Below are positions 3,301 to 59,826 of a stretch of DNA of 64,000 bases, piece after piece (position 1 is the stretch's first letter; the number at the start of each line of letters is the position of its first letter). Under the pieces are notes generated by a model. The model was not told the DNA's origin, ran no database searches, and was given only the letters and a program-made list of their open reading frames with translations. The stretch spans positions 443 through 64,442 of the forward strand of contig JAJDCB010000022.1 of the NCBI GenBank assembly GCA_029261065.1. The letters run 5' to 3'. The translations under genes and the position numbers were made by a program. Source of the stretch: Candidatus Omnitrophota bacterium. Lineage in GTDB: Bacteria; Omnitrophota; Gorgyraeia; Zapsychrales; Zapsychraceae.

Positions 3301-3943
3301 TCTTAGTGATATTATGATGCCTGAAATGGATGGGCATGGTTTGATTGCAAAGATTAGGGCAAACAAAAAGTGCAAAGACATTAAAATTATTGCCATTTCA
3401 TCTGATATTCGTTTAGGTGAGGCTCAGCATGCACAAGAAGATGGTTTTAATGGATTTTTACCTAAACCAATATCTAGAGATGCACTCTTAAAAGTTATTA
3501 CGGTCGTGCTGGGAGATAATAGAGAGCAAGGTTCCATTGTTACGCGCCATATGGCAGAAGAGCTAGCTTGTAAGGGGATAAAGGTTTTGGTTGTTGAAGA
3601 TGTTCTTCCAAATCAAGCTTTAATCAAGGCGTATTTTCAACAATTTGGTTGTGAAGGAGATTATGCGAGTAATGGTCAGGAGGCCGTTGATATGTTGCGC
3701 AGTAATATAGATCAGTATGATTTATGTCTGATGGATATGCAAATGCCTGTTATGGACGGTTTGGAGGCGACAAGAATTATTCGTAAAGAAATTTCTAAGG
3801 ACTTTCCTATCATTGCTTTGACGGCGGCAGCTTTAAAAGAAGATCAGGATCAATGTTTCAAAGCGGGTATGACAGATTACATTTCTAAACCCATACAGAC
3901 TGAAAAGTTAAAAGAAAAAATTTTAGAGTACGCCAAGGAATAA
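314..3943 (+). CDS. Hybrid sensor histidine kinase: TM-flanked periplasmic sensor, HAMP, PAS, GAF, HisKA, HATPase_c and two C-terminal receiver domains
   Basis: 1209-aa ORF. N-terminal TM helix and a second hydrophobic segment around residue 300. H-box [10 protein letters not shown]-box GGTGLGLSI. Two CheY-like blocks (LIVDDN...[10 protein letters not shown] and LVVEDV...[10 protein letters not shown]). Confidence 0.9.
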
Positions 3944-4894: not shown

Positions 4895-5971
4895 ATGAGC
4901 AAAAAAATTAAAATTTTGGTAGTGGAAGATGATATTGGTGATTTCACTTTATTAAAGGGGACTCTCGATCAAGAAATTACAAATGTATTTAATCTTATAC
5001 ATGTGGATAGTTTAGAGAAGGCGTTTAAACGGTTAGATGAAGAGGATTTTGATCTTATTTTGTTGGATTTGGCGTTACCAGATAGCATGGGTTTGGATAC
5101 GGTCACAAAAATTAATGATAAACGTCCTCAAGTGCCAGTTGTCGTATTAACAGGTTTGGACGATAAAGAAGTTGGTATTGCAACCGTAAAAAAAGGAGCT
5201 CAAGATTTTTTAATTAAAGGACAGATAACGTATGACTATTTTTTTAAATCTGTTAATTATGCTCTTGAACGTGTGCGACTGGAGAATTTCAAGAACGATA
5301 TCGTTAATAATATTTCACATGAATTAAGAACCCCTCTTACTATTGTCCGAGAGAGTATAAGCCAAGTATCTGACGGCATTTTTGGGGATATCAATGAGAA
5401 ACAAGATAAATATCTAAAGATGGCTTTAACTAATATTGATCGATTAAAAAAGATTATTGATAATTTACTAGATATGTCAAAAATTGATGCAGGTAAGCTT
5501 GAGATTTTTAAAGAAAAAATAGTCGTTGCAGTATTATTTGAGGATCTTGTGGCTGATTTTTTACTTAAAGTTAAAGCAAAAGAAAATTTGAATATAAAGA
5601 ATTCAACTTTAAGCGAGAAGCTTGAAATCTTTGCTGATCGAGATAATATCATTCAAGTTTTTACAAATTTGGTTGGTAATGCTCTAAAATTTACTGATAA
5701 GGGCCTTATCGAAGTCTCAGCTACTGAAAAAGATAACTTTGTTGAATGCCGTGTTAAGGATTCGGGGATAGGAATTTCTGAAGAAGATTTACCAAGAATT
5801 TTTGGAAAATTTGATCAAATCGGAAGGCAATCTGGTCCCGGAGGTAAGGGAACGGGGTTGGGTTTGGCTATTTCAAAAAGTATCATTGAGCTGCATGGCG
5901 GTAGTATATATGCTGAAAGTGAAAAGGGAAAAGGATCGACGTTTGTTTTTACATTACCTAAAAAAGAGTAA
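4895..5971 (+). CDS. Receiver-histidine kinase fusion (REC-HisKA-HATPase_c)
   Basis: N-terminal CheY-like domain (ILVVEDD...LILLDLALPD). H-box SHELRTPLT. HATPase N/G boxes (VGNALKFT, GTGLGLAISK). Confidence 0.85.
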   Translation: MSKKIKILVVEDDIGDFTLLKGTLDQEITNVFNLIHVDSLEKAFKRLDEEDFDLILLDLALPDSMGLDTVTKINDKRPQVPVVVLTGLDDKEVGIATVKKGAQDFLIKGQITYDYFFKSVNYALERVRLENFKNDIVNNISHELRTPLTIVRESISQVSDGIFGDINEKQDKYLKMALTNIDRLKKIIDNLLDMSKIDAGKLEIFKEKIVVAVLFEDLVADFLLKVKAKENLNIKNSTLSEKLEIFADRDNIIQVFTNLVGNALKFTDKGLIEVSATEKDNFVECRVKDSGIGISEEDLPRIFGKFDQIGRQSGPGGKGTGLGLAISKSIIELHGGSIYAESEKGKGSTFVFTLPKKE

Positions 5972-6005
5972 TTTGTTTTGAAATAATATAAAGGAAAGGA
6001 GTTTT

Positions 6006-10640: not shown

Positions 10641-13600
10641 ATGATTAATAAAATTATAGAAGGTTGTCTAAGAAACAGATTTTTAGTGATCGCAGCCTTT
10701 GTTCTTGTTTTTGTTTTTGGTGTCTCATCCATGAAAAATACGCCGGTTGATGCTATTCCAGATATAGGAGAGTTGCAGGTCATTGTGTATGCGGAGTGGC
10801 CGGGAAGAAGTCCTCAAGATGTTGAAGACCAAGTTATTTATCCCCTAACAACAGGATTAATGGGGACACCAAAAGTTAAAGTTGTTCGATCTTCTGCGGG
10901 ATTTGGTTTTGGTCTGGTGAATATGATTTTTGAGGATGCGACGGATTATTATTGGGCGAGGACAAGAGTATTAGAAAGATTAGACTTTGCTAAGAAAGAT
11001 ATGCCTCAAGATGCGGTTGTAACGTTGGGACCAGATGCCACAGCACTTGGTCAAATTTTTTGGTACACCGTTGAAGGTAAAGATAAAAGTCTTGATGAAC
11101 TAAGGTCCATTCAAGATTGGTTTGTTAGATATCAATTAACATCCGTTGAAGGTGTGTCGGAGGTTGCCTCCGTTGGTGGTTATGTCAAACAATATCAAGT
11201 GGACGTTGATCCCAATAGGTTGAATGTTTTCAACGTTAGTCTTTTACATGTCATGGAGGCGATTAAGCTTTCTAATATTGATGTGGGCGCGAAAGTATTT
11301 GAAGAAGGTGGTGTTGAATATGTTGTGCGAGGATTAGGTTTCATTAAAAGTATCGAAGATATTGAACAAATTGTTATTGGGGTGCATCAGGGGACGCCGT
11401 TAACGATTAAAGATGTAGGTCAAGTGACACTTGGTCCTGACTTTCGACGAGGAGCTTTAGATAAAAATGGCCGTGAAGTCACAGGTGGCGTTGTCTTAAT
11501 GCGTTTTGGAGAAAATCCTTTAAAAGTTATTGAAAGGATTAAAACAAAGATCGAAGAGATTTCAGTTGGTTTGCCTGAAGGGGTCACAATTGTTCCTTTT
11601 TATGATCGCACAGGACTTATCAAAGATTCTATTCATACGTTAAGCAGTGCTTTGACACAAGAGATGATTATTACGGTGTTTGTTATTGCCGTATTTTTAT
11701 TTCATCTTGGGGGAAGTATTATTATTTCCATGGTTCTTCCTATAGGTGTTTTGATTGCCTTTATTTTGATGCGGCAAGTCGGTGTCGATGCCAACATTAT
11801 GTCGTTGGGAGGAATCGCAATCGCTATTGGTGTTATGGTCGACTCGGGCTGTGTTTTAGTTGAAAATATTTATCGGAAACTTGTCGAGAAACGAGAAGAA
11901 AGAAATGTTAATAAGTTATCTAGTGAAGAAAGATTAAACGTATGTATTGAGGCGTCCCAAGAAGTGGGAAGACCTGTTTTGTTTGCTTTGTTAACCACGA
12001 TTGTAAGTTTTGTGCCTGTTTTTGTTTTAACGGGACAAGCGGGGAGATTATTTAGCCCATTAGCTTACACAAAAACGTTTGCCATGATTGGAGCGGCTAT
12101 TATTGCACTAACGTTGCTGCCTACTCTGTGTTATTTTTTCTTAAGAGGACGATTGCGTGCCGTCAAAGATAACAAAACAGCAAAAATATTACATAAAAAC
12201 TATACACCCATGCTTCGATGGTCATTAAAGAATAAAAAAATAGTCGTTATTATTTCTCTTATTGTATTGGTCACAGGGTTGTCTTTAGGATCGATCATGA
12301 AACAAGAGTTTATGCCGCCTTTAAATGAAGGTGATTTGTTGTTTATGCCGGTTTTGATGCCGGGAGCATCATTAACCCAAGTTATGGAGGTGATGCAGAA
12401 ACAAAATATTATTATTAAAGATGAAATCCCAGAGGTTAAACAAGTCGTCGGAAAGCTTGGACGCGCTGAGACCGCGACAGATCCCGCTCCTGTCGTCATG
12501 ATTGAGAGTATTATCAATCTTAAAGACAAAAAGTATTGGCGAAAAGGGATGACGCGAGAAAAACTGATTGTCGAAATTCAAGAAAAAACAAAGATGCCAG
12601 GTGTGAGTCCCATTATGACACAACCGATACGTAATCGTATTGATATGTTAGCCACAGGAATCCAAACACCTGTTGGTATTAAAGTTTTTGGAGCTGATCT
12701 AAAAGAAATAGAAAAAATTGGGATTCAGTTAGAAGGTATTGTTGCTCAAGTTGATGGTGCTGTTGCCCCTTACGCGGAACGTATCGGTGGTCGCGCCTAT
12801 TTTGAAATGGACATTGATCGTGAACAAGCCGCTCGTTACGGCATTCATGTTCAAGATATTCAGGATTTAATCATGACAGGTATTGGTGGGATGAATGTCA
12901 CAACGACGGTGGAAGGTCGTGAGCGTTATCCTGTTCGCGTTCGGTATATGCGCGAGTTGCGTGATAATCCCGAAGATCTAAAACGTATTTTCGTCCCAAC
13001 CCGTTGGAAGTGGGAAAACGCACCGGGACCATTACAAATCCCGTTAGCTCAATTGGTTGACTTTAGAAAGGTTGCTGGACCTTCGATGATTTTATCTGAG
13101 AACACCATGCCGTATGCCCGTGTCTTTGTTAATGTTGATCAAAGTAAAGTGGGGCTTGTTGATTTTGTAAAAAAAGCTCAACAAAAAGTTGAAGAAGAAA
13201 TTAATCAAGGCCGTCTAAATATTCCTGCTGGATATTACATCAGTTGGTCAGGGCAGTTTGAAGCAGAGTTAGAATCAAGAAAGAAATTATTGCCTTCGAT
13301 GATGATTGCTTTACTTGTGATTCTCATTTTACTTTACATGGCGTTTAAGAATTTTAGAGTGTTAGGAATATTAGCGGGTGTCCTTCCGTTATCCTTGATG
13401 GGAGGGATTATTTTACTATTTGTTTTAAACTTTAAGTTTTCGACAGCGGTATGGGTTGGTTTTATAGCCTTGTTTGGTGTTGCGACCGATAATGCAGTTG
13501 TATTGCTTTCAACTCTTGAGAATTTATTTAAAGAAAGACTGCCCAAAACAGTAGAAGATATTAGAGCGACAGTTACTGAAGCTGGGTTATTAAGAGTTCG

Positions 13601-13793
13601 ACCTGCGATGATGACAACTATGACGACCATTATCGCTTTACTCCCCGTCATGTTTGCCACCGGCAGCGGTTCAGAAATCATGAAACCCATGGCCGCACCA
13701 ACGGTAGGTGGTCTTGTTACGGCAACCTTGGCCAATTTAATATTGGTGCCTGTGTTGTATGCATGGATTAAAGAAAAAGAAATACAAGACTAA
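10641..13793 (+). CDS. Heavy-metal efflux RND transporter (CusA/CzcA family)
   Basis: 1050 aa with 12-TM RND topology. N-terminus IIEGCLRNRFLVIAAF...AIPDIGELQVIVYAEWPG is typical of the HME-RND family. Confidence 0.9.
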   Translation: MINKIIEGCLRNRFLVIAAFVLVFVFGVSSMKNTPVDAIPDIGELQVIVYAEWPGRSPQDVEDQVIYPLTTGLMGTPKVKVVRSSAGFGFGLVNMIFEDATDYYWARTRVLERLDFAKKDMPQDAVVTLGPDATALGQIFWYTVEGKDKSLDELRSIQDWFVRYQLTSVEGVSEVASVGGYVKQYQVDVDPNRLNVFNVSLLHVMEAIKLSNIDVGAKVFEEGGVEYVVRGLGFIKSIEDIEQIVIGVHQGTPLTIKDVGQVTLGPDFRRGALDKNGREVTGGVVLMRFGENPLKVIERIKTKIEEISVGLPEGVTIVPFYDRTGLIKDSIHTLSSALTQEMIITVFVIAVFLFHLGGSIIISMVLPIGVLIAFILMRQVGVDANIMSLGGIAIAIGVMVDSGCVLVENIYRKLVEKREERNVNKLSSEERLNVCIEASQEVGRPVLFALLTTIVSFVPVFVLTGQAGRLFSPLAYTKTFAMIGAAIIALTLLPTLCYFFLRGRLRAVKDNKTAKILHKNYTPMLRWSLKNKKIVVIISLIVLVTGLSLGSIMKQEFMPPLNEGDLLFMPVLMPGASLTQVMEVMQKQNIIIKDEIPEVKQVVGKLGRAETATDPAPVVMIESIINLKDKKYWRKGMTREKLIVEIQEKTKMPGVSPIMTQPIRNRIDMLATGIQTPVGIKVFGADLKEIEKIGIQLEGIVAQVDGAVAPYAERIGGRAYFEMDIDREQAARYGIHVQDIQDLIMTGIGGMNVTTTVEGRERYPVRVRYMRELRDNPEDLKRIFVPTRWKWENAPGPLQIPLAQLVDFRKVAGPSMILSENTMPYARVFVNVDQSKVGLVDFVKKAQQKVEEEINQGRLNIPAGYYISWSGQFEAELESRKKLLPSMMIALLVILILLYMAFKNFRVLGILAGVLPLSLMGGIILLFVLNFKFSTAVWVGFIALFGVATDNAVVLLSTLENLFKERLPKTVEDIRATVTEAGLLRVRPAMMTTMTTIIALLPVMFATGSGSEIMKPMAAPTVGGLVTATLANLILVPVLYAWIKEKEIQD

Positions 13794-13857
13794 GATTTGT
13801 AAGACCACTTAAAAACATCAACCTTTTAATTTTAAATTCTTCAGGTATAATCATTTT

Positions 13858-14811
13858 ATGTTTTCCACGATTATATTTAATATTCCTTTTTTCATATTTT
13901 ATTTTTATGCCATTAGTGTCTCTTTAGAGAAGCGCAAAGTTCAACAACAACCAGCGACATTAAGTTTAATAGTTTTCTCTGCATTTTTAGGGAAAGCTGT
14001 TATTGTTTTTATTTTGGTTCTACTTCTGCAAAGAGGCGGTGGTGGCGAGGGAGCTTCTAAGTCCTTATATCAAGTCATGATTGCCATCCATTATGTTTTA
14101 ATGGCGTTATTAATGTTTTGTATCTTTGGTTGGCGAAAATCAGAAGAAGCGACGTATAAACGACCAATTAAATTGACGGTTGTTGGTTTTGTTCTTATAG
14201 GTGTAGGCATATTATTCAGCATTTTTTTTCAGCGTATGTTTGTAGATGGAGGATTTAATGGTGATATTAAACTGTTTGCTGGTTTTAATGCTTTCTTCTC
14301 AATGATATTTGGTTTAGGATCATTAATATTTTTTCTAAAGGCTATCTTTGATAGTCGAGGTTATCCGGAAGCAAAACCTGCTGTTGTAACGGCGGGTCAA
14401 GGTAATGGATCTTCAGCTGATCAAATCAATGTTCAAGTTCCGCTAACAGGTCTTTTTGAAGAAAAGGATTTTATTCCTTATGTCGTTGGAATTATGGGGT
14501 TCGGTGGATTATTGATCATTCCTCTTTTGTGGGGTGGTTTTATGGGGATGGGATACGAGAGATCGATGTTTCCTGCTTTACTTTCGTGTGGCATTTTTGC
14601 TTTCTCTCATGACAAGCGTGGTAATTTTTTGTGGGGACGCTTTATATTTTTATCCATTTATGTTTTTTTTATGATTATGCGTACGGCAGCCAAGTATGGT
14701 GGTGGTGGAAAACCTATGTTTCTTGCTGGTGGTTTTTTAGGATATGTTGTTATGTTTGGCTGTGGTTGGTTGGGTATTGCTATCAATCGGTTTTTGTTTA
14801 AAAAGAAATAG
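13858..14811 (+). CDS. Polytopic membrane protein with Gly-rich loops, function unknown
   Basis: About 8 hydrophobic helices and GGGG motifs. No recognisable catalytic motif. Confidence 0.5.
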   Translation: MFSTIIFNIPFFIFYFYAISVSLEKRKVQQQPATLSLIVFSAFLGKAVIVFILVLLLQRGGGGEGASKSLYQVMIAIHYVLMALLMFCIFGWRKSEEATYKRPIKLTVVGFVLIGVGILFSIFFQRMFVDGGFNGDIKLFAGFNAFFSMIFGLGSLIFFLKAIFDSRGYPEAKPAVVTAGQGNGSSADQINVQVPLTGLFEEKDFIPYVVGIMGFGGLLIIPLLWGGFMGMGYERSMFPALLSCGIFAFSHDKRGNFLWGRFIFLSIYVFFMIMRTAAKYGGGGKPMFLAGGFLGYVVMFGCGWLGIAINRFLFKKK

Positions 14812-38844: not shown

Positions 38845-40449
38845 ATGGGATCATTTGAAAAATTAGGATTATCACAAGACACTCTTGGTGTATTAAAGCG
38901 TAAAGGTTTTGAAGAACCTACGCCCATACAAGAAAAGGCGATTCCCGCCGTATTATTAGGGAAAAAAGATATTGTTGGGCAAGCTCAGACAGGGACTGGA
39001 AAAACGGCGGCTTTTGGATTGCCTATTATTGAGTTATTAAAAGAGAAGTCAAAAGCTGTTCAGGCCATTGTTCTAGCTCCAACCCGCGAGTTGGCTATTC
39101 AGGTGGCTGAGGAGATGCATTCTCTAAAGGGAAAGAAAAAGTTAAGTATTATTCCTATTTATGGTGGGCAATCTATCGATCTTCAGTTAAGACGATTACG
39201 TAAAGGTGTTGATATCGTTGTTGGTACACCAGGGCGAGTATTAGATCATCTTAAAAGACGGACATTAAAATTAGATCAGATTTCTTTTATGGTATTAGAT
39301 GAAGCGGATGAAATGTTGAATATGGGATTTTTTGAGGATGTTAAAGCCATTATGGATCAGACTTCGCAAGACAAACGTGTGATGCTATTTTCTGCTACGA
39401 TGCCTAATGAAATTATGCAAATTTCTAAAAAGTATATGAAGGATTATGAAATTCTCAAAGTGGTCTCTGATCAGCTAACAGGTAGTCGAACCGATCAATT
39501 ATATTTTGAAGTGGCGGCCCAAGATAAATTTGAATCTTTATGTCGCATTATTGATATTGAAGATAATTTTTATGGGCTTGTATTTTGTCGAACAAAAATT
39601 GATGTTGATAAAGTGGCTAATCATCTTATGGAACGCGGTTATGATTCAGCCGCCCTTCATGGAGACATGTCGCAAACGTTAAGAGAAAGAATTTTAAATA
39701 AGTTTAAAAAAAGACAAGTTAACATTCTTGTTGCAACAGATGTCGCGGCCCGAGGTATTGATGTTCAGGATATATCACATGTCATCAATTTTGCTCTTCC
39801 TCAAGATTCTGAATCGTATGTTCACAGAATTGGACGCACGGGTCGTGCGGGTAAGGAAGGCGTTGCGATTACTTTTGTGACACCAGAAGAATATCGAAAG
39901 CTAAAAGTTATCACAAGAAAAGTAAAGACAGATATTCGTAAGGCTAAGCTTCCTAAAGTTAGCGATATTATTGAATCAAAGCGAAAAAAGATTAAAACGC
40001 AGTTAGGGGAAATCGTTCGTTCTGATCGAAAGCAAGAATATACCGATCTTGCTCAAGAACTTTTAAAGGAAAATGACTCCCAAGAGATATTGGGAGCCTT
40101 GTTACAACATACATTTCAAGGTGTGCTAGATGTCAGCAGTTATGCTCTAGTTGAAGAAGGGGTTGTTGATAGAAAGGGTAAGACTCGACTTTTTGTTCAG
40201 CAGGGAAAAGATAATGGGCTGACTAACGCGAAGCTTGTTAAAATTATTGTAGATAAATGTTCCATTACAAGTGAAAAAATTCGCGATATTCAAATTTTTG
40301 ATAGATTTGCGTTTGTCACGTTGCCGTTTCATGAAGCAGAAACGGTTCTAAGTTTTTTTAAGAGAAATAGACAGTCAGGCTTTTATATTACAAAAGCAAA
40401 GCAAGATCGTACACGTACAAGTGCACGTACACGTACACGAAGACGATAA
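38845..40449 (+). CDS. DEAD-box ATP-dependent RNA helicase (DeaD/CsdA-like) with a C-terminal DbpA-type RNA-binding domain
   Basis: Q motif, Walker A AQTGTGKT, DEAD (VLDEAD), SAT, HRIGRTGR. C-terminal DbpA-like domain and a basic RTRTRRR tail. Confidence 0.95.
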   Translation: MGSFEKLGLSQDTLGVLKRKGFEEPTPIQEKAIPAVLLGKKDIVGQAQTGTGKTAAFGLPIIELLKEKSKAVQAIVLAPTRELAIQVAEEMHSLKGKKKLSIIPIYGGQSIDLQLRRLRKGVDIVVGTPGRVLDHLKRRTLKLDQISFMVLDEADEMLNMGFFEDVKAIMDQTSQDKRVMLFSATMPNEIMQISKKYMKDYEILKVVSDQLTGSRTDQLYFEVAAQDKFESLCRIIDIEDNFYGLVFCRTKIDVDKVANHLMERGYDSAALHGDMSQTLRERILNKFKKRQVNILVATDVAARGIDVQDISHVINFALPQDSESYVHRIGRTGRAGKEGVAITFVTPEEYRKLKVITRKVKTDIRKAKLPKVSDIIESKRKKIKTQLGEIVRSDRKQEYTDLAQELLKENDSQEILGALLQHTFQGVLDVSSYALVEEGVVDRKGKTRLFVQQGKDNGLTNAKLVKIIVDKCSITSEKIRDIQIFDRFAFVTLPFHEAETVLSFFKRNRQSGFYITKAKQDRTRTSARTRTRRR

Positions 40450-45872: not shown

Positions 45873-45915
45873 AATAAGTCATTTGAGAACTTATTTCAAT
45901 GAGAAGTGCGAATGG

Positions 45916-45941
45916 ACCCCGCCAAAGGCGTGGTTTTTTTC
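45916..45941 (+). terminator. GC-rich hairpin plus T7 run (accccgcc aaa ggcgtggt tttttt) in the feo leader
   Basis: Stem with one mismatch. Member of the CCCCGC..GCGGGG hairpin family seen at 55401 and 56893. Confidence 0.5.
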
Positions 45942-50335: not shown

Positions 50336-50626
50336 ATGAAACGACAAGGCGACTTACTTATTATTGCAGTTGAAGATATTCCGGCTAAAGCCAAGAAGTT
50401 AGATCATTTAATTTTGGCTGAAGGCGAGAAAACGGGCCATTTACATCAGTTAGATCATGGTGCAGTTTATGAAAAAGATGAGTATCTCTATTTCCAAGTT
50501 CCTTCCCTTAGTGAGGTCACCTTAACACATCCCGAACATGGTGCTGTTGTTTTTACACCAGGCCGCTATAAAGTTATTCGTCAACGTGAGTATGCGCCGG
50601 AAGGTTGGCGGTATGTACAAGACTAA
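50336..50626 (+). CDS. Small hypothetical protein (beta-rich, His-containing)
   Basis: 96-aa ORF whose end overlaps the start of the MORN-repeat gene. Confidence 0.4.
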   Translation: MKRQGDLLIIAVEDIPAKAKKLDHLILAEGEKTGHLHQLDHGAVYEKDEYLYFQVPSLSEVTLTHPEHGAVVFTPGRYKVIRQREYAPEGWRYVQD

Positions 50627-51482
50627 ATATATTTATACGCTTTTGCAAGAATCTAAACGCAAAGGCTTATTGCATTCTTACAAGAATGAAACCAATGCTT
50701 CATTAATCATTAATGAAGCATTTTTTAATGATGGGTCCAGGCGTTTTCAATATTCATTGTTAAACGGTAAATTGCATGGTGTTGGTCGTTTGTGGCATGA
50801 AAATGGTCAGCTTCTTGAAGAGGAGCCTTGGTATAAAGGGATTTATCATGGGCGATATAGAAAATGGTATGACAGTGGTCGTCTTTGTGAGGAGGCATTT
50901 TTTGTTAATAACGAATATAATCAAAGACACCGTTTTTGGTATGCAAATGGTAATCTAAAATCGGAATGTTTGTATGAATCGAATAAAATAAATGGTCTAT
51001 TTATGGAATGGTTTGAAAATGGCATGCCAAAATCGAGTGTGACGTATGTCAATGGTTTGAGGCACGGGATTGAAAAGGAATATGACGTTCAAGGTAAACT
51101 CATTTCAAGAAAATTGTATATACGGGGTGTTATGTTAACGGGAAAGACGGCGTTACTTATTAAGAAAAATCAGTTAACAGCGAAAAAGATCATGACGATG
51201 AAAAATGCGGCTGTTAGAAGGATTTGTTTAGAAGAAATGGGTTATGAACGGTTTTTAATGAATGTTGATCATAGTGTTATTGATCATAACGAAAAAGGTG
51301 ATCTTATTAAAATATGTTGGCACAAGAATGAAGAACCTCTTATGGTTGTGAAAGTACGATGCCCATCAACAGGAGCTTTCTACACTCTTCGCGTTCCCCC
51401 TCATATGCGCACAGCGCCAGAAGCGATTGCATGGACATTCGGCCTGCAAGAGCAAGATTATCAGCCTATTGAAGAAACTTAA
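50613..51482 (+). CDS. MORN/YwqK-type repeat protein with a conserved C-terminal domain of unknown function
   Basis: Repeats G.LHG....WHENGQL, YKGIYHGRYRKWYDSGRL, WYANGNLKSE, MEWFENGMPK. C-terminal block CPSTGAFYTLRVPP...EAIAWTFG. Start uncertain: in-frame ATGs at 50538, 50592 and 50613. Confidence 0.55.
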   Translation: MYKTKYIYTLLQESKRKGLLHSYKNETNASLIINEAFFNDGSRRFQYSLLNGKLHGVGRLWHENGQLLEEEPWYKGIYHGRYRKWYDSGRLCEEAFFVNNEYNQRHRFWYANGNLKSECLYESNKINGLFMEWFENGMPKSSVTYVNGLRHGIEKEYDVQGKLISRKLYIRGVMLTGKTALLIKKNQLTAKKIMTMKNAAVRRICLEEMGYERFLMNVDHSVIDHNEKGDLIKICWHKNEEPLMVVKVRCPSTGAFYTLRVPPHMRTAPEAIAWTFGLQEQDYQPIEET

Positions 51483-51493
51483 TCTAGGGAATT

Positions 51494-51590
51494 CCAACAG
51501 GACATAGGTAGTCGCGGTATTTCGAGCTCAAACAACTTCGCTTGCGCTCGTAACTCGCGCGAAATACCACGGTTGCCTATGTTCTGTTGG
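51494..51590. repeat. Large imperfect palindrome (31-nt arms ccaacaggacataggtagtcgcggtatttcg / cgaaataccacggttgcctatgttctgttgg around a GC-rich 35-nt centre)
   Basis: Arms read directly from the sequence; about 25 of 31 positions are complementary. Intergenic between two + strand genes. Confidence 0.5.
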
Positions 51591-53760: not shown

Positions 53761-54000
53761 TTGAGGAGTTTTTTTATGAAAATTACTGTCAATGGCAAAG
53801 AAGAGACTATAGAGGGCGCAACTCTTTCTGTGAAGGGTCTTCTCAGTGCTTTAAATGTGTCCCAGCCGGATATGGTGTCTGTGCAACTTAACGGGGCCTT
53901 TGTAAACAAAGAAAATTATGAAACAACAACTGTCAAAGAGGCGGATACGGTTGATTTTCTTTATTTTATGGGTGGGGGAGCTCATATCTTTTCATTATGA
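53761..54000 (+). CDS. ThiS/MoaD-like sulfur-carrier protein with a C-terminal extension beyond the Gly-Gly (HcyS/CysO-like)
   Basis: MKITVNGKEETIEG...VQLNGAFV...DTVDFLYFMGGG then AHIFSL before the stop. The stop overlaps the metY start (ATGA). Confidence 0.75.
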   Translation: MRSFFMKITVNGKEETIEGATLSVKGLLSALNVSQPDMVSVQLNGAFVNKENYETTTVKEADTVDFLYFMGGGAHIFSL

Positions 54001-55235
54001 AAGATCCAGATTTTATAACTAAAATTTTACATAATCGTTTTTTAAAAAGCGATCCACATGGTTCAATGCATATGCCTGTGTATGAAAACGTGGCGTTTGA
54101 ATTTGAGAGTGCGGAAGATATCGAATTAGCCTTTCAACGTAAGAAGCCGGCACATATGTACTCGAGAATCAGCAACCCAACGGTAGAAGCCTTTGAACAA
54201 CGTATCAGGGCTGTCACCGATGCTTCGGGTGTTATTGCTGTTTCCTCCGGAATGGCTGCCATTACAAATGTAATCATGACGATTGCAGGTCAAGGCGATA
54301 ACATTATTACAACCAAACATCTTTTTGGAAATACGTATTCTTTATTTGAGAAGACCTTTAAAGATTGGGGTTTGGAAGTTCGATTTGCGGATTTAACACA
54401 AGCGGAATCTCTAAGCCAACTCATTGATGGGAAAACCAAAGCTATCTTTTTTGAAACCATTACCAATCCACAATTAGAAATTGTTGATATCAAGGCTTTA
54501 TCGGAGGTTGCGAAGAAAAATAATGTGTTATTGTTAGCAGACACAACATTAACTCCTCCGTATGTCTTTGAATCAAAGAAATTTGGTGTTGATGTCGAGG
54601 TTCTTTCAAGTACAAAATATATTTCCGGTGGTGCTACAACTGTTGGCGGTCTTATTATTGATAATGGTTTCTTTGATTGGAGCAAAAATGAGAAGTTAGC
54701 CGATGATGCCAAACAATTTGGTCCTTTTGCTTTTATTAGTCGACTCAGACGACAAGTTTATCGTAATTTAGGTTCATGCATGTCAGCGCATTGTGCTTTT
54801 TTACAAAGTGTTGGTTTAGAGACTCTTCCTTTGAGGGTTGATGTTTCTTGTGCGAATGCATTAACTGTTGCAAATTATTTAGAAGAAAATCCTTTAGTTA
54901 AGAAGGTCGATTATCCTGGATTACAAAGTTCACCTTATCATGATATTGCTGAGCAACAATTTGGAGATAGGTCTGGGGGACTTTTAACGTTTGATTTAGA
55001 ATCGAAGGACGTTTGTTTTAAGTTTATGAATAAACTAAAACTTATCAGACGTTCTACTAATCTAAATGATAATCGAACACTTATTCTGCATCCGGCGTCG
55101 ACCATTTTTTGTGAATATGATGATGCGCTTAAAGAAGAGATGCATGTTAGAGAAACAATGATAAGGCTGTCTGTTGGTATTGAGGGTGTGCATGATTTGA
55201 TGAATGATATCGAACAAGCGTTAGCGGTCGGATAA
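53997..55235 (+). CDS. metY: O-acetylhomoserine sulfhydrylase / Cys-Met-metabolism PLP-dependent enzyme (MetY-like)
   Basis: PF01053-type pattern. N-terminal MHMPVYENVAFEF. PLP-lysine motif SSTKYISGG. Confidence 0.85.
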   Translation: MKDPDFITKILHNRFLKSDPHGSMHMPVYENVAFEFESAEDIELAFQRKKPAHMYSRISNPTVEAFEQRIRAVTDASGVIAVSSGMAAITNVIMTIAGQGDNIITTKHLFGNTYSLFEKTFKDWGLEVRFADLTQAESLSQLIDGKTKAIFFETITNPQLEIVDIKALSEVAKKNNVLLLADTTLTPPYVFESKKFGVDVEVLSSTKYISGGATTVGGLIIDNGFFDWSKNEKLADDAKQFGPFAFISRLRRQVYRNLGSCMSAHCAFLQSVGLETLPLRVDVSCANALTVANYLEENPLVKKVDYPGLQSSPYHDIAEQQFGDRSGGLLTFDLESKDVCFKFMNKLKLIRRSTNLNDNRTLILHPASTIFCEYDDALKEEMHVRETMIRLSVGIEGVHDLMNDIEQALAVG

Positions 55236-55253
55236 TTTTTAAATAGCATGAAA

Positions 55254-55356
55254 GATACAAGTAACAAGATACAAGACACAAAAAATAATCAATGACCAAA
55301 AAGAAAATAACCAAAGAGTTTGATTATTCAGTCATTGGATATTGATTATTTTTTGC
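55254..55356. repeat. MITE-like palindromic repeat, copy A (acaagNNacaag heptamer-like units plus the caaaaaataatcaa...aataaccaaa hairpin)
   Basis: Close match to the reverse complement of the right arm of copy B at 56326..56451. Internal inverted repeat caaaaaataatcaatgac / gtcattgg..attgattattttttg. Confidence 0.6.
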
Positions 55357-55360
55357 CAAA

Positions 55361-55435
55361 GCGTCAAGAGACGCTGGTTCGGCCGTAGGCCGAATAACTT
55401 GCCCCGCCTTTGGCGGGGTCCCGCTAACAGCGGGA
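55361..55435. repeat. Array of four consecutive GC-rich stem-loops (gcgtc..gacgc; ttcggcc..ggccgaa; gccccgcc..ggcggggtc; cccgct..agcggg)
   Basis: Read directly from the sequence. Strongly GC-rich relative to the local AT-rich context. REP-like or a structured RNA. Confidence 0.5.
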
Positions 55436-55498
55436 TACCTTGTACCTTGGTTATTTTATAGAATTCTGACAATATCTACTTTCGGTTGAGGAGACAAT

Positions 55499-56305
55499 AT
55501 GGATTTTAATGAAGAACAATTAGAGCGTTATAGCCGTCATATCATTTTGCAAGATGTGAGTATTGAAGGTCAGCAGAAGATTATGGAAGGTAAGGTGCTT
55601 ATTATAGGAATGGGAGGCTTAGGTGCGCCTGTTGCTCTTTATTTAGCCGCCGCTGGTGTTGGGACGCTTGGGCTCGTTGATGGTGATGTTGTTGATTTAA
55701 GTAATTTGCAACGACAAGTCATTCATTTTACGCCTGATGTTGGAAAGCCAAAGGTTCTTTCTGCTAAAGAGAAGATTGCTCAAATTAATCCGGATGTTAA
55801 GGTTGTTACGCATCAAGAGTTAGCTTTGGCTAACAATATTGCTGATTTAATTAAGGACTATGATTTCATTATTGATGGAACGGATAACTTTCCTGCCAAG
55901 TTTTTAGTGAACGATGCTTGCGTGTTTGGCAAAAAGCCATTTTCACATGGGGGTATTTTAAGATTTGATGGACAAACCATGACGCATGTTCCAGGGGAAG
56001 CCTGTTATCGATGTGTTTTTGGTTTTGCGCCACCCTTAAATGCTGTTCCGTCATGTTCACAAGCAGGTGTTCTTGGAGCGATTGCCGGAATGCTTGGAAC
56101 GATTCAAGCAACCGAAGCGCTTAAGTTTTTAGTCGGTAAAGGAGAGTTGTTAACCAATCGGTTGTTAGTTTTTAATGCGTTAAACATGAATTTTAGAACA
56201 GTGAATTTGAAAAAAAATGCGAACTGCCCTGTGTGTGGAGACAATCCTTCGATTACGGAGTTGAGGGATGAGGAGCAGAAGGCTTGTGATATTACGCAGA
56301 GGTAA
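55499..56305 (+). CDS. ThiF/MoeB/HesA-family E1-like adenylyltransferase with a C-terminal zinc tetrad
   Basis: Nucleotide-binding GMGGLGAPVALYLAAAGVG. CxxC...CxxC (CYRC, CPVC). Confidence 0.85.
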   Translation: MDFNEEQLERYSRHIILQDVSIEGQQKIMEGKVLIIGMGGLGAPVALYLAAAGVGTLGLVDGDVVDLSNLQRQVIHFTPDVGKPKVLSAKEKIAQINPDVKVVTHQELALANNIADLIKDYDFIIDGTDNFPAKFLVNDACVFGKKPFSHGGILRFDGQTMTHVPGEACYRCVFGFAPPLNAVPSCSQAGVLGAIAGMLGTIQATEALKFLVGKGELLTNRLLVFNALNMNFRTVNLKKNANCPVCGDNPSITELRDEEQKACDITQR

Positions 56306-56325
56306 AGTAGGTAAAGGGAAGCAAT

Positions 56326-56451
56326 AATCAAGTTACAAGTTACAAGTTACAAAAAATAATCAAAAACCAGACAACAACAATAACCAAACATTTGGTTATT
56401 TGTAATTGGTCATTGTTTCTTTTTTGTAACTTGTATCTTGTAACTTGTACC
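56326..56451. repeat. MITE-like 126-nt imperfect palindrome, copy B, with three tandem caagtta heptamers in the left arm and a central perfect hairpin aataaccaaa-cat-tttggttatt
   Basis: Left and right arms are diverged reverse complements of each other. Fills the thiF-like / JAMM intergenic region. Confidence 0.6.
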
Positions 56452-56471
56452 TTCTGCGAGGTAATTAAATT

Positions 56472-56867
56472 ATGAAAATTCAAAAACAAATTTTAGACAA
56501 TATTATTAAGCACGCCAAAACCGGCTTGCCTTTAGAAATTTGCGGTTATCTCGCATCAAAAGACGGCGTGGTTATCAAGCATTACGAGCTTACCAACATT
56601 GATCAAAGCGAAGAGCATTTTTCTTTTGATCCAGCAGAACAATTTGCCACCGTTAAAGATGCTCGGGCCAATGGATTAGAATTATCAGCTGTTTATCACA
56701 GTCATCCTGTTACACCCGCGAGGCCATCACAAGAAGATATCAAGTTGGCGTATGATCCAAACATTAGTTATGTGATTGTTTCTATGGCTGAGCGAGAAGG
56801 TGATGTGAAGTCGTTTAAGATTCGTGAGGGTGTTGTTGAGAAGGAAGAGATTGAGGTTGTTAGTTAA
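56472..56867 (+). CDS. JAMM/MPN+ metalloprotease (Mec+/HcyD-like)
   Basis: EICGYL plus JAMM motif HSHPvtparpSqeD (H-x-H-x7-S-x2-D). Confidence 0.85.
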   Translation: MKIQKQILDNIIKHAKTGLPLEICGYLASKDGVVIKHYELTNIDQSEEHFSFDPAEQFATVKDARANGLELSAVYHSHPVTPARPSQEDIKLAYDPNISYVIVSMAEREGDVKSFKIREGVVEKEEIEVVS

Positions 56868-57013: not shown

Positions 57014-59473
57014 ATGATTAAGAAATCAGCTAATGCATTAAAGACTCATACGTTACCAGATAATCTAGGTGATGAAATAAACGTGCTTGAAACTTATGTT
57101 GAGAGGTTTAAGAAAGATGACCTTTCCTTAATGGAATTTAAAGTTCAGCGCGTTCCATTTGGTGTCTATGAGCAACGTAAAAAAGACACTTATATGATTC
57201 GTATTCGTTGTGCAGGTGCCTGTGTTCGCCCTGACCAACTTAAAAAAATTGCAGAGATTTCTCAAGTTCATGGAGCTGATTACATCCATTTAACGTCTCG
57301 CCAAGAAATCCAATTACATTATGTTTTAGTTGATAGTATTGTTCCTGTTATGTGGGAACTTAAAGCCGCTGATTTGGCTTCTCGTGGAGGAGGAGGAAAT
57401 ACGGTTCGAAATATTATGGCTCAAGAAGATGCTGGTATCGCCGAAGATGAGGCTTTTGATGTAACGCCTTATGCCATTGAGTTAACGTCACGTTTAGTTG
57501 TAGAGCCGGATTCTTGGAACTTACCAAGAAAGTTTAAGTTTGCTTTCTCTGGATCTTCCGATGATCGCGGTTATGCAACTCTTCATGATGTTGGTTACAT
57601 CGCCAAAATCAAAGACGGTGTAAAAGGTTTTACTGTTTATGTCGCTGGAGGAATGGGAGCAAAAGCGATGTTAGGAAATCTTTTGTTTGATTTTATTCCT
57701 GATACGGAAGTTTACAATGTTGCTAAGGCCACAAAAAATCTTTTTTACAAAAATGGTAATAGAAAAAATAAACATGCCTCACGCCTACGTTTTTTGTGGA
57801 AACAATTAGGTGGAGATGAGTTTAAACGTATCTTTTTTGAAGAATACGAAGCTGTAAAGAAAGAAAACTATCTACCTCTAGCTGTAAAAGATATTGATAA
57901 TGTTGGTATTGACCCGAATTCGGATATTGAACAACCAGCGGATCAAAAAGACTATGAGTTGTGGAAAAAGCGTTTTGTTCAATCACAAAGACAAGAAGGG
58001 CTTAATGCGATTATTTTACCTATTCATTTAGGTCATGTTGATAATGACAAAGCGATTAAACTTGCTGAGTTTTTGATGCCATTTGGTGAAAACGTTATCC
58101 GTATTCGAAAAGATCAAAACTTTTTGATCAGAAATATTATGGATAAATATCTACCGAATCTTTATAACATGTTGAAAGATACATTTGATAACTTTAATAG
58201 ACCATTTATCATTGATAAAGTTTTAGCCTGTGCCGGTGCCTCAACATGCCAATTGGGTATTTGTTTATCACCTGGAGCAGCTACTGCAACCAAAAGATAT
58301 TTAGAAACTTGTGATCTTGATTTGGATGCGGTTTCAGATGCCAAAGTTAACATCTCAGGATGTCCAAACTCTTGTGGTCAGCACCATGTGGCTGATTTAG
58401 GTTTCTTTGGAAAGGTAGCGCGCCGAGGAGATAAGGTTCATCCAGCATATAATGTCTTAGTCGGTTCTCTTGTCAAAGAAGGCGAAACCGAATTTGCTCA
58501 AAAAGTAGGAGAGATTGCCGCACGCGATATGCCTTTTATTACAAAAGCTGTTTTTAAATCTTATTTAGGAAAAAGAGCGAAATACGAAACCTTTAGAGAT
58601 TATATGCGTAGTGATGAAGGTAAAGAAGACGTAAAAGCTCTTTGTGTGAAATATAAATCGGACATTCCTGATTATGAAGTGGATAAAAATTATTATCTTG
58701 ATTGGGGAACTGATAAAACGTTTTCAGTAGCTGAACGTGGTAAGGGTGAATGTTCAGCCGGGATTTTTGATTTGATTGAAAGTGATTTAGGTCACATTCA
58801 ACAAGCCAAAAAACTTCTTGAGGAAATTAATGAAAATGGTGGTGATATTGGGCAAAAGCAAACGCTGTTAAGAGACGTCATTTATTATAGCGCTCGAATC
58901 CTTTTGATTTCAAAGGCGCTTGAGCCGCAGAATGAAAAAGAAGTTTACAGTTATTTCCGTGAGCATTTTATCAATACGGGATTAATTGCTGCTTCCTTTG
59001 ATGAGATCATTAAATTAGCGGAAGCCGGAGATTTTAAGACGTTGATCGAAAAAGAAGATCAAGTGTTTGCCTTGGCAGATCGTCTTAAATACCTTTATGA
59101 TGTCATGGATAGTGCCTTTCGATATAAACTTAAAGAGGGCGACAGTCTTCATAACGATAAGGTTGATTTTATTCCTGTGGTCCATCAAGCGGCAAGTGCG
59201 TCTGCCAAAGCTAAGACAGCCTCAACGACAGCAACAAAAACCGCAGATCCTGCTTTAGTCAAAGATTTTCGAGGCGTGGGTTGTCCAATGAACTTTGTGA
59301 AGACAAAGATGGAGTTGGCAAAACTCAAGTCTAAAGATATTCTTGAAATATGGTTAGACGATGGCCAACCGATTGAAAATGTCCCTGGTTCCGTTCGTGA
59401 AGAAGGGCATACTGTTTTAGAACAACAAAAGACGGATGAAGGTTATTGGTCCGTTGTTATAGAGAAGCAATAA
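57014..59473 (+). CDS. Sulfite/nitrite reductase-family siroheme-[4Fe-4S] enzyme fused to a C-terminal TusA-like sulfur-carrier domain
   Basis: NIR_SIR ferredoxin-like and 4Fe-4S modules with Cys clusters CAGASTCQLGIC and SGCPNSCGQHH. The C-terminal 70 aa (FRGVGCPMNFVKTKMELAKL...WSVVIEK) match the TusA CPxP-type motif. Confidence 0.8.
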   Translation: MIKKSANALKTHTLPDNLGDEINVLETYVERFKKDDLSLMEFKVQRVPFGVYEQRKKDTYMIRIRCAGACVRPDQLKKIAEISQVHGADYIHLTSRQEIQLHYVLVDSIVPVMWELKAADLASRGGGGNTVRNIMAQEDAGIAEDEAFDVTPYAIELTSRLVVEPDSWNLPRKFKFAFSGSSDDRGYATLHDVGYIAKIKDGVKGFTVYVAGGMGAKAMLGNLLFDFIPDTEVYNVAKATKNLFYKNGNRKNKHASRLRFLWKQLGGDEFKRIFFEEYEAVKKENYLPLAVKDIDNVGIDPNSDIEQPADQKDYELWKKRFVQSQRQEGLNAIILPIHLGHVDNDKAIKLAEFLMPFGENVIRIRKDQNFLIRNIMDKYLPNLYNMLKDTFDNFNRPFIIDKVLACAGASTCQLGICLSPGAATATKRYLETCDLDLDAVSDAKVNISGCPNSCGQHHVADLGFFGKVARRGDKVHPAYNVLVGSLVKEGETEFAQKVGEIAARDMPFITKAVFKSYLGKRAKYETFRDYMRSDEGKEDVKALCVKYKSDIPDYEVDKNYYLDWGTDKTFSVAERGKGECSAGIFDLIESDLGHIQQAKKLLEEINENGGDIGQKQTLLRDVIYYSARILLISKALEPQNEKEVYSYFREHFINTGLIAASFDEIIKLAEAGDFKTLIEKEDQVFALADRLKYLYDVMDSAFRYKLKEGDSLHNDKVDFIPVVHQAASASAKAKTASTTATKTADPALVKDFRGVGCPMNFVKTKMELAKLKSKDILEIWLDDGQPIENVPGSVREEGHTVLEQQKTDEGYWSVVIEKQ

Positions 59474-59505: not shown

Positions 59506-59826
59506 ATGGTATTTTTTCTAAAATACAAATCCATTAATGCGCAACAAGCAAAGAAGCTGCTTGATGAGAATCAAATAACATTAGTGGATACTCGCGAGCA
59601 TGAATCTTACCAAAAGTCTCATATTCCTGGGGCGATACATATTCACGATAATAATATTCATCAGCTGGATAGTTCAATAGATAAGACAAAGCCTATCCTT
59701 TGTTATTGTTATAAAGGAAAGGGAAGTCGATTAGTCTGCAAAAAATTATATAAGGCTGGGTTTCGCTTGGTATTTAACTTAAAGGGTGGATACGAGTCAT
59801 GGGAGATTGTATTTTCCACATTATGA
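59506..59826 (+). CDS. Single-domain rhodanese (sulfurtransferase)
   Basis: Rhodanese fold with the active-site loop CYCYKGKGS. The start may lie downstream of 59506. Confidence 0.7.
   Translation: MVFFLKYKSINAQQAKKLLDENQITLVDTREHESYQKSHIPGAIHIHDNNIHQLDSSIDKTKPILCYCYKGKGSRLVCKKLYKAGFRLVFNLKGGYESWEIVFSTL

Follow-up and report, generated by a model that had tools for sequence, protein, structure and literature searches.

Two long palindromic spacers, elements A and B, lie on either side of the gene for a ThiF/MoeB-type E1 adenylyltransferase in a ThiS-MetY-ThiF-JAB operon of a Candidatus Omnitrophota bacterium (assembly GCA_029261065.1, contig JAJDCB010000022.1, positions 443 to 64,442; this whole stretch of 64,000 nucleotides (nt) is called the window below). 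What are these spacers, how did they come to stand between the genes of one operon, and do they do anything for the genes beside them? An original prediction, made from the letters of the window alone, had described them as a palindromic repeat family resembling miniature inverted-repeat transposable elements (MITEs), which could mediate the gain or loss of genes or act on the E1 and JAMM genes as RNA-level regulators. We conclude, with moderate confidence, that a non-autonomous foldback repeat (~120 nt, ~28% GC), which spreads by copy-and-paste and is tolerated in the form of stem-loops in the mRNA, gave rise to A and B as diverged sister copies.

Acquisition and structure of elements A and B

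Comparison with six related operons (L002, L003, L004, L237, L238 and L239, whose ThiF proteins are 82-87% identical to that of the window) shows that both elements are acquired DNA. In the six relatives the MetY and ThiF genes overlap at their stop and start codons (TGATGG, TAATGG) or are separated by a gap of no more than 12 nt, and in five of the six the ThiF and JAB genes abut (TAAATG) or lie 12-15 nt apart. The corresponding spacers in the window are 263 and 166 nt long, and because the relatives' genes overlap or abut at these junctions, both spacers must have been gained. Neither element is present in any of the six orthologous operons. No gene was truncated in the process, because MetY, ThiF and JAB have kept their lengths of 412, 268 and 131 amino acids (aa), the MetY of L002 also being 412 aa long. 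The order ThiS-MetY-ThiF-JAB is kept in the relatives that lack the elements, and a gain or loss of thiF through the elements is not supported. The sixth ThiF/JAB junction, that of L003 (ThiF 82% identical), carries a different palindromic insert of 196 nt at positions 5805-6000. Because of this different insert, such junctions seem to accept hairpin-forming DNA repeatedly. L003 also has other heptamer arrays at 346-420 and 3717-3749, with AGTGGTC in a hairpin with GACCACT, and with GGAAGTA between the ThiS and MetY genes.

Elements A and B (Table 1) are the two longest inverted repeats of the window, and the only period-7 tandem arrays in it that score at least 39 (Tandem Repeats Finder, TRF) are theirs. 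The 41-nt arms of element B (56329-56369 and 56407-56447) are 88% complementary and form the longest inverted repeat of all; a CAAGTTA array (3.4 copies, 100% identity, 56329-56352) stands on the left and a mirror array of TTGTAAC type (4.3 copies, 56424-56453) on the right. The perfect central hairpin that had been predicted for B is there with 10-nt arms, but its loop is the dinucleotide ca and not cat. RNA of positions 56306-56471 is predicted to fold with -54.7 kcal/mol, as against -25.5 +/- 4.2 for shuffled sequences (z -7.0; 0 of 200 shuffles as good), and element B as DNA with -35 kcal/mol (z -9.2, no shuffle as good). Element A has its own inverted repeat between 55254 and 55356, as predicted, but the end assigned to it there was too early, since the right arm resumes beyond an 80-nt GC-rich block and reaches 55457. 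The arms of its inner palindrome (55279-55315 and 55319-55355, 37 nt each) are 78% complementary, and the RNA of the whole A spacer has a predicted fold of -86.2 kcal/mol (z -7.8) that no shuffle equalled. By their inverted repeats, heptamer arrays and folds, the two palindromic, structured copies are thus real.

When the GC-rich block (55356-55435) is removed from A in silico, the remainder aligns collinearly with the whole of B. The orphan TAACTTG heptamer inside the block reads, by its sequence, as a leftover of A's right-arm array, and the third of the four mini-hairpins in the block matches the terminator at 45914-45930 exactly over 17 nt on the reverse strand. GC-rich mini-hairpins were considered as general invaders of elements of this family (below) and rejected, their density being 0.57 per kb inside elements and 0.71 per kb elsewhere.

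How closely are the two copies related? Element A had been described as a close match to the reverse complement of B's right arm, and it is 84% complementary to that arm over 55 nt; A and B also match each other directly and in register, in the same orientation and 1071 nt apart. The similarity of their inner segments is 0.46, which is the 99.6th percentile of 558 between-contig pairs, and by this measure the inner sequences of A and B are sister copies. Their arms have unequal numbers of units (4 and 2(+1) in A, 3 and 4 in B). No gene overlaps either element, the small reverse-strand open reading frames (ORFs) at 55332-55472 and 56340-56489 having no support of any kind, and a search with the core motifs found no further copies within the 64 kb. 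A and B are therefore related, non-coding and inserted, as had been supposed, the relatives' junctions being free of such spacers except for the one different insert.

A dispersed family of heptamer-armed foldback elements

Do A and B have relatives elsewhere? When genomes, one for each species, were scanned with CAAGNNACAAGNNACAAAAAA, at least 119 loci came up, and a scan of Joint Genome Institute metagenomes with a 20-base pattern gave 112. The matches listed for CAAGNNACAAGNNACAAAAAA have hosts among the Bacteroidota, the Candidate Phyla Radiation (CPR)/Patescibacteria, Omnitrophota, Saganbacteria, gammaproteobacteria and cyanobacteria, and from this wide spread we conclude that heptamer arrays of this type are common. 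Twenty elements from other sources, with no window sequence among them, were aligned (alignment A1) and made into a hidden Markov model; the consensus is ...CAAGAAACAAGATACAAAAAATATTCAAT..CCAAATT.CAA...loop...TTG..TTTG..TTTGGAATTTGTTTGTTTCTTGT.TCTTG, in which CAA on the left and TTG on the right each recur every 7 nt. Both elements of the window belong to this family: in the 64 kb the A1 profile matches the whole of B (E 3e-20) as well as A (E 2e-13), and the next match has an E above 1. In 1.56 Mb of pattern-selected loci the profile matches 114 places, of which 64 are near full length. These loci come from Omnitrophota, Patescibacteria/CPR, Saganbacteria and unnamed metagenome contigs, which bears out the prediction of a dispersed palindromic repeat family. 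Its members have a median length of 118 nt and a GC content of 28%, and the near-full-length ones come from Omnitrophota (L054, L115), Patescibacteria (L006), Peregrinibacteria (L033, L046, L083), Saganbacteria (L088) and unclassified metagenome-assembled genomes (MAGs).

The architecture of these elements is as follows: (CAAGNNA)n is followed by CAAAAAA, an offset of 4 nt, three to four AT-rich CAANNNN units and a short loop, and then by the mirror image of all this out to (TNNCTTG)n. The A-rich arm is always 5', on whichever strand the element is read. A mirrored arm is present within 200 nt downstream of 32 of 96 metagenome hits and upstream of none of the 96; among the listed matches of the genome scan the figures are 10 downstream and 3 upstream for 102 hits, and the arm pairs among them are convergent in 13 cases and divergent in 1. 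Because the mirrored arms lie downstream, and convergent pairs far outnumber divergent ones, the hairpin arrangement is not due to chance. The 4-nt offset (A-run, 4 nt, CAA) recurs in 8 of 10 elements from a scan that did not force it. Termini of the form AATAAYCAAG / CTTGRTTATT occur in 21 of 58 members, the CTTGRTTATT motif in 13 of 58, and a centre of the CAAAC...GTTTG type, under a relaxed definition, in 17 of 58.

Several copies can be present at one locus: at least two places are found at 17 of the 94 loci with a profile match, some contigs have two or three copies within 0.5-5 kb, and the inner segments of the two L219 copies have a similarity of 0.66 (99.8th percentile). The arms change by slippage of whole units, as is seen in L129 (700-900) and L225 (1975-2175), which are identical over 194 nt save for one extra CAAGATA. 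The elements usually begin within some tens of nt, or only a few nt, past a stop codon, and by crude ORF calls they lie between co-directional genes in 20 cases, between convergent genes in 10 and between divergent genes in 3. Family members are also tolerated inside structured RNA. Two of them replace helix-tip loops of the 23S rRNA gene of contig L153 (12177-14679; the same locus as L193) and extend the helix, and the second stands at a position (1218) which we take to be the classical helix-45 intervening-sequence site.

Heptamer arrays were seen in other settings as well. CAAGATA-type arrays lie apparently in frame in CPR-like housekeeping genes (L065 2547-2600, L164, L130, L147, L155 and L162) that resemble lepA, topA, uvrD/pcrA, folD, uvrA and miaA when the flanking translations are read by eye, which suggests repeat-encoded protein insertions. 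In gammaproteobacterial MAGs (L017, L029, L075, L094, L097 and L061), (CAAGTCA)n or (CAAGCTA)n abuts the A/T-run of GC-rich intrinsic terminators, and some of these loci have an inverted (CTCTTGC)n array on the far side. One spacer on the minus strand of a Bacteroidales MAG (L114, ~1812-2300) consists of successive arrays of AAGAACC, AAGGAAC, AATCACG, AAGATTC and GGTGAAC; the AATCACG/AATCACC units there fit what we take to be the WATCACW heptad of the plasmid omega repressor, probably by coincidence. Carriage by phages was considered and rejected, the one viral match being a chance match in a coding region.

Table 1. Positions of the elements, their parts and the neighbouring genes. Coordinates are those of the window, except for the two 23S rRNA inserts, which are given in contig L153.
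Feature	Position	Strand	Evidence or remark
Element A, full extent, 206 nt; foldback element with nested GC-rich block	55252..55457		nhmmer 55256-55356, E 2e-13, model positions 2-100
A, left arm: four CAAGNNA-type heptamers (AAGATAC, AAGTAAC, AAGATAC, AAGACAC), into CAAAAAA	55252..55281		TRF period 7, 4.3 copies
A, inner AT-rich palindrome CAAAAAATAATCAA ... TTGATTATTTTTTG, centre AATAACCAAAGAGTTTGATTATT	55279..55355		
A, GC-rich block, 80 nt, splitting the right arm	55356..55435		four mini-hairpins: 55361-55374, 55379-55393, 55402-55418, 55420-55434
A, orphan TAACTTG heptamer between GC hairpins 2 and 3	55395..55401		read from the sequence
A, right arm: TACCTTG x2 and family-type terminus GTTATTTT	55436..55457		pairs with left heptamers in predicted fold
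Element B, complete foldback element, 131 nt	56323..56453		nhmmer E 3e-20 and 1e-19 on the two strands, model positions 3-121
B, left arm: terminus AATAATCAAG, then CAAGTTA x3, then CAAAAAA	56323..56356		
B, centre: perfect 10-bp hairpin AATAACCAAA / TTTGGTTATT, 2-nt loop	56379..56400		arms 56379-56388, 56391-56400
B, right arm: TTTTTTG, then TAACTTG, TATCTTG, TAACTTG, TACCTT	56420..56453		
B, small alternative hairpin UACCUU-CUGC-GAGGUA; last heptamer pairs with JAB Shine-Dalgarno	56448..56463	+	predicted, minimum free energy structure
23S rRNA insert 1 (L153), 110 nt	12340-12449		near Rfam large subunit (LSU) model position ~165
23S rRNA insert 2 (L153), ~200 nt	~13711-13913		Rfam LSU model position 1218
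ThiS-family sulfur-carrier gene, first gene of the operon	53761..54000	+	Pfam ThiS E 9e-11; same position in relatives
Cys/Met-metabolism pyridoxal phosphate enzyme (MetY-like sulfhydrylase), upstream of A	53997..55235	+	Pfam Cys_Met_Meta_PP E 3e-107; 412 aa
ThiF/MoeB-type E1 adenylyltransferase, between A and B	55499..56305	+	Pfam ThiF E 3e-80; 268 aa as in L238 and L239
Prokaryotic JAB/JAMM gene, downstream of B	56472..56867	+	Pfam Prok-JAB E 1.5e-24; 131 aa
Sulfite/nitrite reductase fused to C-terminal TusA sulfurtransferase domain	57014..59473		
Rhodanese gene, after the reductase-TusA fusion	59506..59826		

Probable origin of the elements and their likely effect on the operon

How might such elements have reached the operon, and with what consequence for it? 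If the copy-and-paste reading is right, they would spread through an enzyme acting in trans or through hairpin-directed template switching or repair, and would land at or beside stop codons or existing hairpins. Their arms would lengthen and shorten through slipped-strand mispairing, and in element A a separate, later GC-rich insertion would have split the right arm. The elements would be co-transcribed with the ThiS-MetY-ThiF-JAB-sulfite reductase operon as imperfect stem-loops of ~60 bp that replace translational coupling, each downstream gene having its own Shine-Dalgarno sequence (GAGGAG upstream of ThiF, GAGGT for JAB). For the host such a stem-loop would at most attenuate transcription weakly, serve as an RNase III site or hold up 3'-exonucleases, and most likely the elements are tolerated passengers rather than purpose-built regulators.

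The geometry of the elements, A6-hairpin-T6, is like that of a bidirectional terminator, because the A-rich arm is 5' on either strand. Strict polarity together with placement close to stop codons suggests that the family derives from terminator-like hairpins, or that it is kept where a weak terminator or stem-loop is harmless. Efficient termination is unlikely because copies are present in a 23S rRNA gene and between genes of the same pathway, and because the stem at the T-run is weak. An intrinsic-terminator scan made no call at A or B, where the stem beside TTTTTTG is AT-rich and interrupted and has A6...T6 flanks; the ordinary terminators of the genome have short stems with G-C pairs. Weak sigma-70-like matches in the left arms (GTTACA-17-AATAAT, 9/12) were judged uninformative.

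A number of results weigh against a mobile, copy-and-paste repeat. Among 45 elements examined for target-site duplications, the longest word shared by the two flanks has a mean length of 4.58 nt (4.28 in controls), with a mild excess of shared words of at least 6 nt (12 observed, 5.3 expected). The flank words of element A are TTTTAAATAG and TTTTATAG, and AGGTAA occurs near element B at 56300-56305, 56309-56314 and 56459-56464; none of these exactly adjoins the ends of its element. When 765 ORF segments within 3 kb of 66 loci were clustered for a partner gene, no family was present at more than 4 of the 66 (the top clusters were glycosyltransferases, pilins, Mur ligases and FolD), and there was no transposase among the 20 window proteins scanned. 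Copy number appears low, with only two copies in this 64 kb and none in 62 kb of unselected related Omnitrophota DNA. The loci that define the family were retrieved with patterns from the window's own arms and are biased toward CAAG arms with an A-run. The boundaries of the insertions are not exact to the base because the relatives' ThiF genes are no closer than the identities given above, and the whole-length score of A against B, 67, is little above the 64.5 and 65 that they reach against elements on unrelated contigs. Finally, some of the family resemblance may reflect a shared mutational process, since the arms are of low complexity and generically complementary: chimeric hairpins have a predicted -35.1 kcal/mol and native ones -37.4, so that arms are interchangeable between elements.

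Can the elements be assigned to a known class? They are short and non-coding, have terminal inverted repeats and show presence and absence at orthologous sites, and to this extent the predicted MITE-like behavior stands; a cognate transposase was found neither within 3 kb at the 66 loci nor among the 20 window proteins. Because a clear target-site duplication and a parent transposase are both lacking, we do not file A and B as MITEs, and their membership in that class is unproven. Repetitive extragenic palindromes (REPs) and their hairpin-forming doublets (REPINs) were rejected, as the elements here are ~120 nt long with 28% GC, show no visible GTAG/CGTC tag and have no recurrent REP-associated tyrosine transposase (RAYT) neighbor. 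An integron attC site was rejected because the ends, AATAATCAAG ... CTTGTACCTT in B and GAAAGATACAAG ... CTTGGTTATTTT in A, differ from RYYYAAC ... GTTRRRY (intI was not searched for), and thiF is a conserved member of the operon, not an integron cassette. Tandem 7-nt direct repeats in intergenic DNA, the mark of the heptanucleotide class, are present as three TRF arrays. Their units are CAAGTTA, CAAGATA, CAAGTAA and CAAGACA with TAACTTG, TATCTTG and TACCTTG, and are neither TAACTGA nor those of the short tandemly repeated repetitive (STRR) sequences STRR1-3, which are CCCCAGT, TTGGTCA and CAACAGT.

The main rival explanation is that the elements grew in place as non-mobile palindromic microsatellites, by slippage beside a hairpin or an A/T tract and by intrastrand template switching, with outward growth, so that their likeness would be one of mutational bias and of units derived from CAAAAAA. 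We consider this unlikely, though a good deal speaks for it. Among the long simple repeats of prokaryotes those with a heptanucleotide unit are the most frequent, and slippage of the polymerase has been put forward as their cause (Mrazek 2007, as summarised in PMC4679880). Change in the number of whole units was seen directly in L129 and L225, there is no clear target-site duplication and no linked transposase, and the interchangeability of the arms is also as expected. In one Peregrinibacteria MAG the same arms surround unrelated centers (L033, L046, L083), gammaproteobacterial arms surround ordinary GC-rich terminators (L017, L029, L075, L094), and the polarity, with the A-rich arm first, is what one would expect if a terminator had supplied the seed with its A-tract and T-tract. 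However, the counterparts of the window junctions in the six relatives contain no spacer or hairpin that could have been a seed, and the inner sequence that A and B have in common is specific, going well beyond generic heptamers (percentile given above). Arms with A-runs are also present at rRNA helix tips, where there is no A/T-tract to seed them, and the 4-nt offset and recurrent termini are common to several phyla.

Also improbable, and placed after growth in situ, is a selected intercistronic RNA element, that is, a partial terminator or attenuator of the bidirectional type, an RNase III site or a 3'-end stabiliser that sets the ThiS/MetY:ThiF:JAB ratio; the repeat may have been co-opted for such a role. 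The A6-hairpin-T6 geometry with its strict polarity, the very stable predicted stem-loops and the preponderance of convergent over divergent flanking genes (10 and 3) would agree with it, as would the facts that A and B begin 17-24 nt past stop codons and that both copies bracket one cistron and are found nowhere else in the window. The small hairpin predicted at the end of B, in which the last heptamer (UACCUU) pairs with the JAB Shine-Dalgarno sequence, also fits. But no terminator was called, the stems at the T-run being AT-rich and interrupted, unlike the ordinary terminators of the genome, and efficient termination would do damage in the 23S rRNA gene that contains members of the family. 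The element is missing from every orthologous operon examined, and there are no compensatory changes.

Ribbon-helix-helix proteins, such as omega of plasmid pSM19035, bind consecutive 7-bp repeats, and the heptamers could in principle be protein-binding DNA of the operator or centromere-like kind. The units are 7 bp long, both direct and inverted, and have an invariant CAAG core beside variable positions, and three 7-bp steps would make two turns of the helix. We nevertheless regard this as very improbable, because arrays lie inside coding and rRNA genes and vary widely in unit number, one spacer (L114) has many different heptamers in succession, the genes linked to the elements include no candidate for a binding protein, and the elements are within the operon and not at its promoter.

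The reading of A and B as a conserved structured noncoding RNA gene, or a riboswitch-like leader for the E1 and JAMM genes, is largely refuted. Strong predicted folding is all that speaks for it. RNAalifold on alignment A1 gives 11 consensus pairs, all of them invariant CAAG/CTTG and none with a compensatory change, and variable heptamer positions agree between the arms in 90 of 148 cases (73 +/- 4 with shuffled partners). Rfam 15 has no match at gathering score in the window, only long hairpins resembling plant miRNA precursors below threshold, and the center of the element is variable. Regulation of the E1 and JAMM genes at the RNA level, as originally predicted, is likewise not sustained, given the interchangeable arms, the lack of an Rfam family and the lack of covariation, and given that the element is missing from orthologous operons yet stands in unrelated contexts that include a 23S rRNA gene. 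Least probable of all is an assembly artefact such as a chimeric palindrome: assemblers do struggle here, as Logan contig L001 (run SRR15505515) ends inside both elements, but L001 agrees with the window at 100% identity from 55399 to 56408 and so reaches into both, and many projects and assemblers have yielded contigs, more than 100 in all, with the same architecture. The L001 overlap takes in 52 nt of element A and 86 nt of element B, and because it stops inside both, short-read assembly graphs evidently break at these palindromes.

The genes around the elements are listed in Table 1. The ThiS-MetY-ThiF-JAB-reductase set is that of the protein-thiocarboxylate-dependent homocysteine/methionine synthesis genes described in Wolinella, and the reductase-TusA fusion (57014-59473) is also found in the relative L003. 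The window as a whole has a GC content of ~36% and a GC skew that is positive throughout 1-64000 (+0.08 to +0.33), and its plus strand carries 32 of the 33 ORFs of at least 250 aa. The named homologues of its ThiF and FeoB proteins are overwhelmingly from Candidatus Omnitrophota/Omnitrophica, outer-membrane efflux and porin proteins are encoded in it, and Rfam at gathering score found no tRNA and no other family in the 64 kb. Two further repeats were observed in it. A 97-nt hairpin at 51494-51590 (34-nt arms, 82% complementary, GC above that of its surroundings) lies between an ORF at 50538-51482 and a DUF3108 gene, and Rfam gives nothing for it even when all matches with E below 1 are admitted. 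A (CGTACA)x5 hexamer array at 40408-40439 encodes the Arg/Thr-rich tail RTRTSARTRTRRR, with which a DEAD-box/DbpA helicase (38845-40449) ends.

Significance and comparison with known repeats

Bacterial repeats with a heptanucleotide unit have been on record since the STRRs of heterocystous cyanobacteria were described. Full-text literature searches, whose coverage left out most subscription journals, found no description of elements like A and B in Omnitrophota or CPR, so the family is apparently undescribed. As far as the searchable literature shows, this is the first tie between heptamer arrays, a polarised foldback of ~120 nt and copy-and-paste behavior across Omnitrophota, CPR and Saganbacteria, and a single family here both fills intervening-sequence positions in a 23S rRNA gene and splits translationally coupled genes of a sulfur-carrier operon. 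For the window itself the practical message is modest; the moderate interest of the finding rests mainly on the cross-phylum family and on its presence in rRNA, and the A1 profile can be used to annotate such elements. If the family is mobile, it would provide a sequence model for rRNA expansions, operon spacers and repeat-encoded protein inserts in uncultured bacteria with small genomes. Could it even represent a new class of bacterial mobile DNA, foldback elements with self-renewing heptamer arms that move without an adjacent transposase, by means of a conserved host enzyme, one acting in trans or copy-and-paste aimed at hairpins, cross phyla among small-celled groundwater bacteria (Omnitrophota, CPR, Saganbacteria) and supply rRNA intervening sequences, operon spacers and in-frame protein inserts? 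We put this forward tentatively, as a possibility that we ourselves doubt.

Classical intervening sequences sit at helix tips of bacterial 23S rRNA (helices 9, 25 and 45), and the family members that replace two 23S terminal loops with AT-rich hairpins of 110 and ~200 nt are like them in this; to our knowledge, classical intervening sequences do not have sequence in common with intergenic repeats, nor a heptamer build. With MITEs such as Correia, RUP, ERIC and Nezha the elements have in common that they are small, non-coding and AT-rich, have inverted ends, occur as dispersed intergenic copies that would be co-transcribed and can fold into long hairpins, and are present or absent at orthologous sites. 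Unlike MITEs, they end in tandem heptamers of variable number and not in a fixed transposase-binding end, and their copy number is apparently low. The nearest architectural analogy is with the foldback (FB) transposons of eukaryotes, in which short tandem repeats make up the long inverted ends: these too are palindromes with tandem-repeat arms of variable length, and no homology is implied. Palindromic microsatellite repeats of fungal and algal mitochondria, the subject of PMC7218506 and PMC4524435, are comparable in the same way. Both belong to another domain of life and differ in size and unit length.

REPs, bacterial interspersed mosaic elements and REPINs (the subject of PMC3116915 and PMC3733652) are extragenic palindromes found after genes and non-autonomous, for which mRNA stabilisation or termination has been proposed, and in this they resemble the elements described here, which would likewise be mobilised in trans. 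REPs are 20-40 nt long, GC-rich, tagged with GTAG/CGTC and linked to RAYTs, whereas the present elements are ~120 nt long, have 28% GC and are built of heptamers. The TAACTGA repeats reported from marine Beggiatoaceae, cyanobacteria and Bacteroidetes (MacGregor 2015, PMC4679880) and the STRRs are alike in being intergenic 7-nt tandem arrays of patchy distribution across phyla, often near start codons and in some cases in ORFs (as given in PMC4679880). The mRNA-sense unit upstream of the JAB gene, TAACTTG, even has TAACT in common with TAACTGA. The present arrays differ in being mirror images around an AT-rich core, so as to form a hairpin of ~120 nt, whereas the Beggiatoa genome is described in PMC4679880 as having 169 direct sets and 1 indirect. 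They differ from both STRR and TAACTGA repeats in their unit, CAAGNNA/TNNCTTG with two free positions, and in their host phyla, which here are Omnitrophota, CPR and Saganbacteria.

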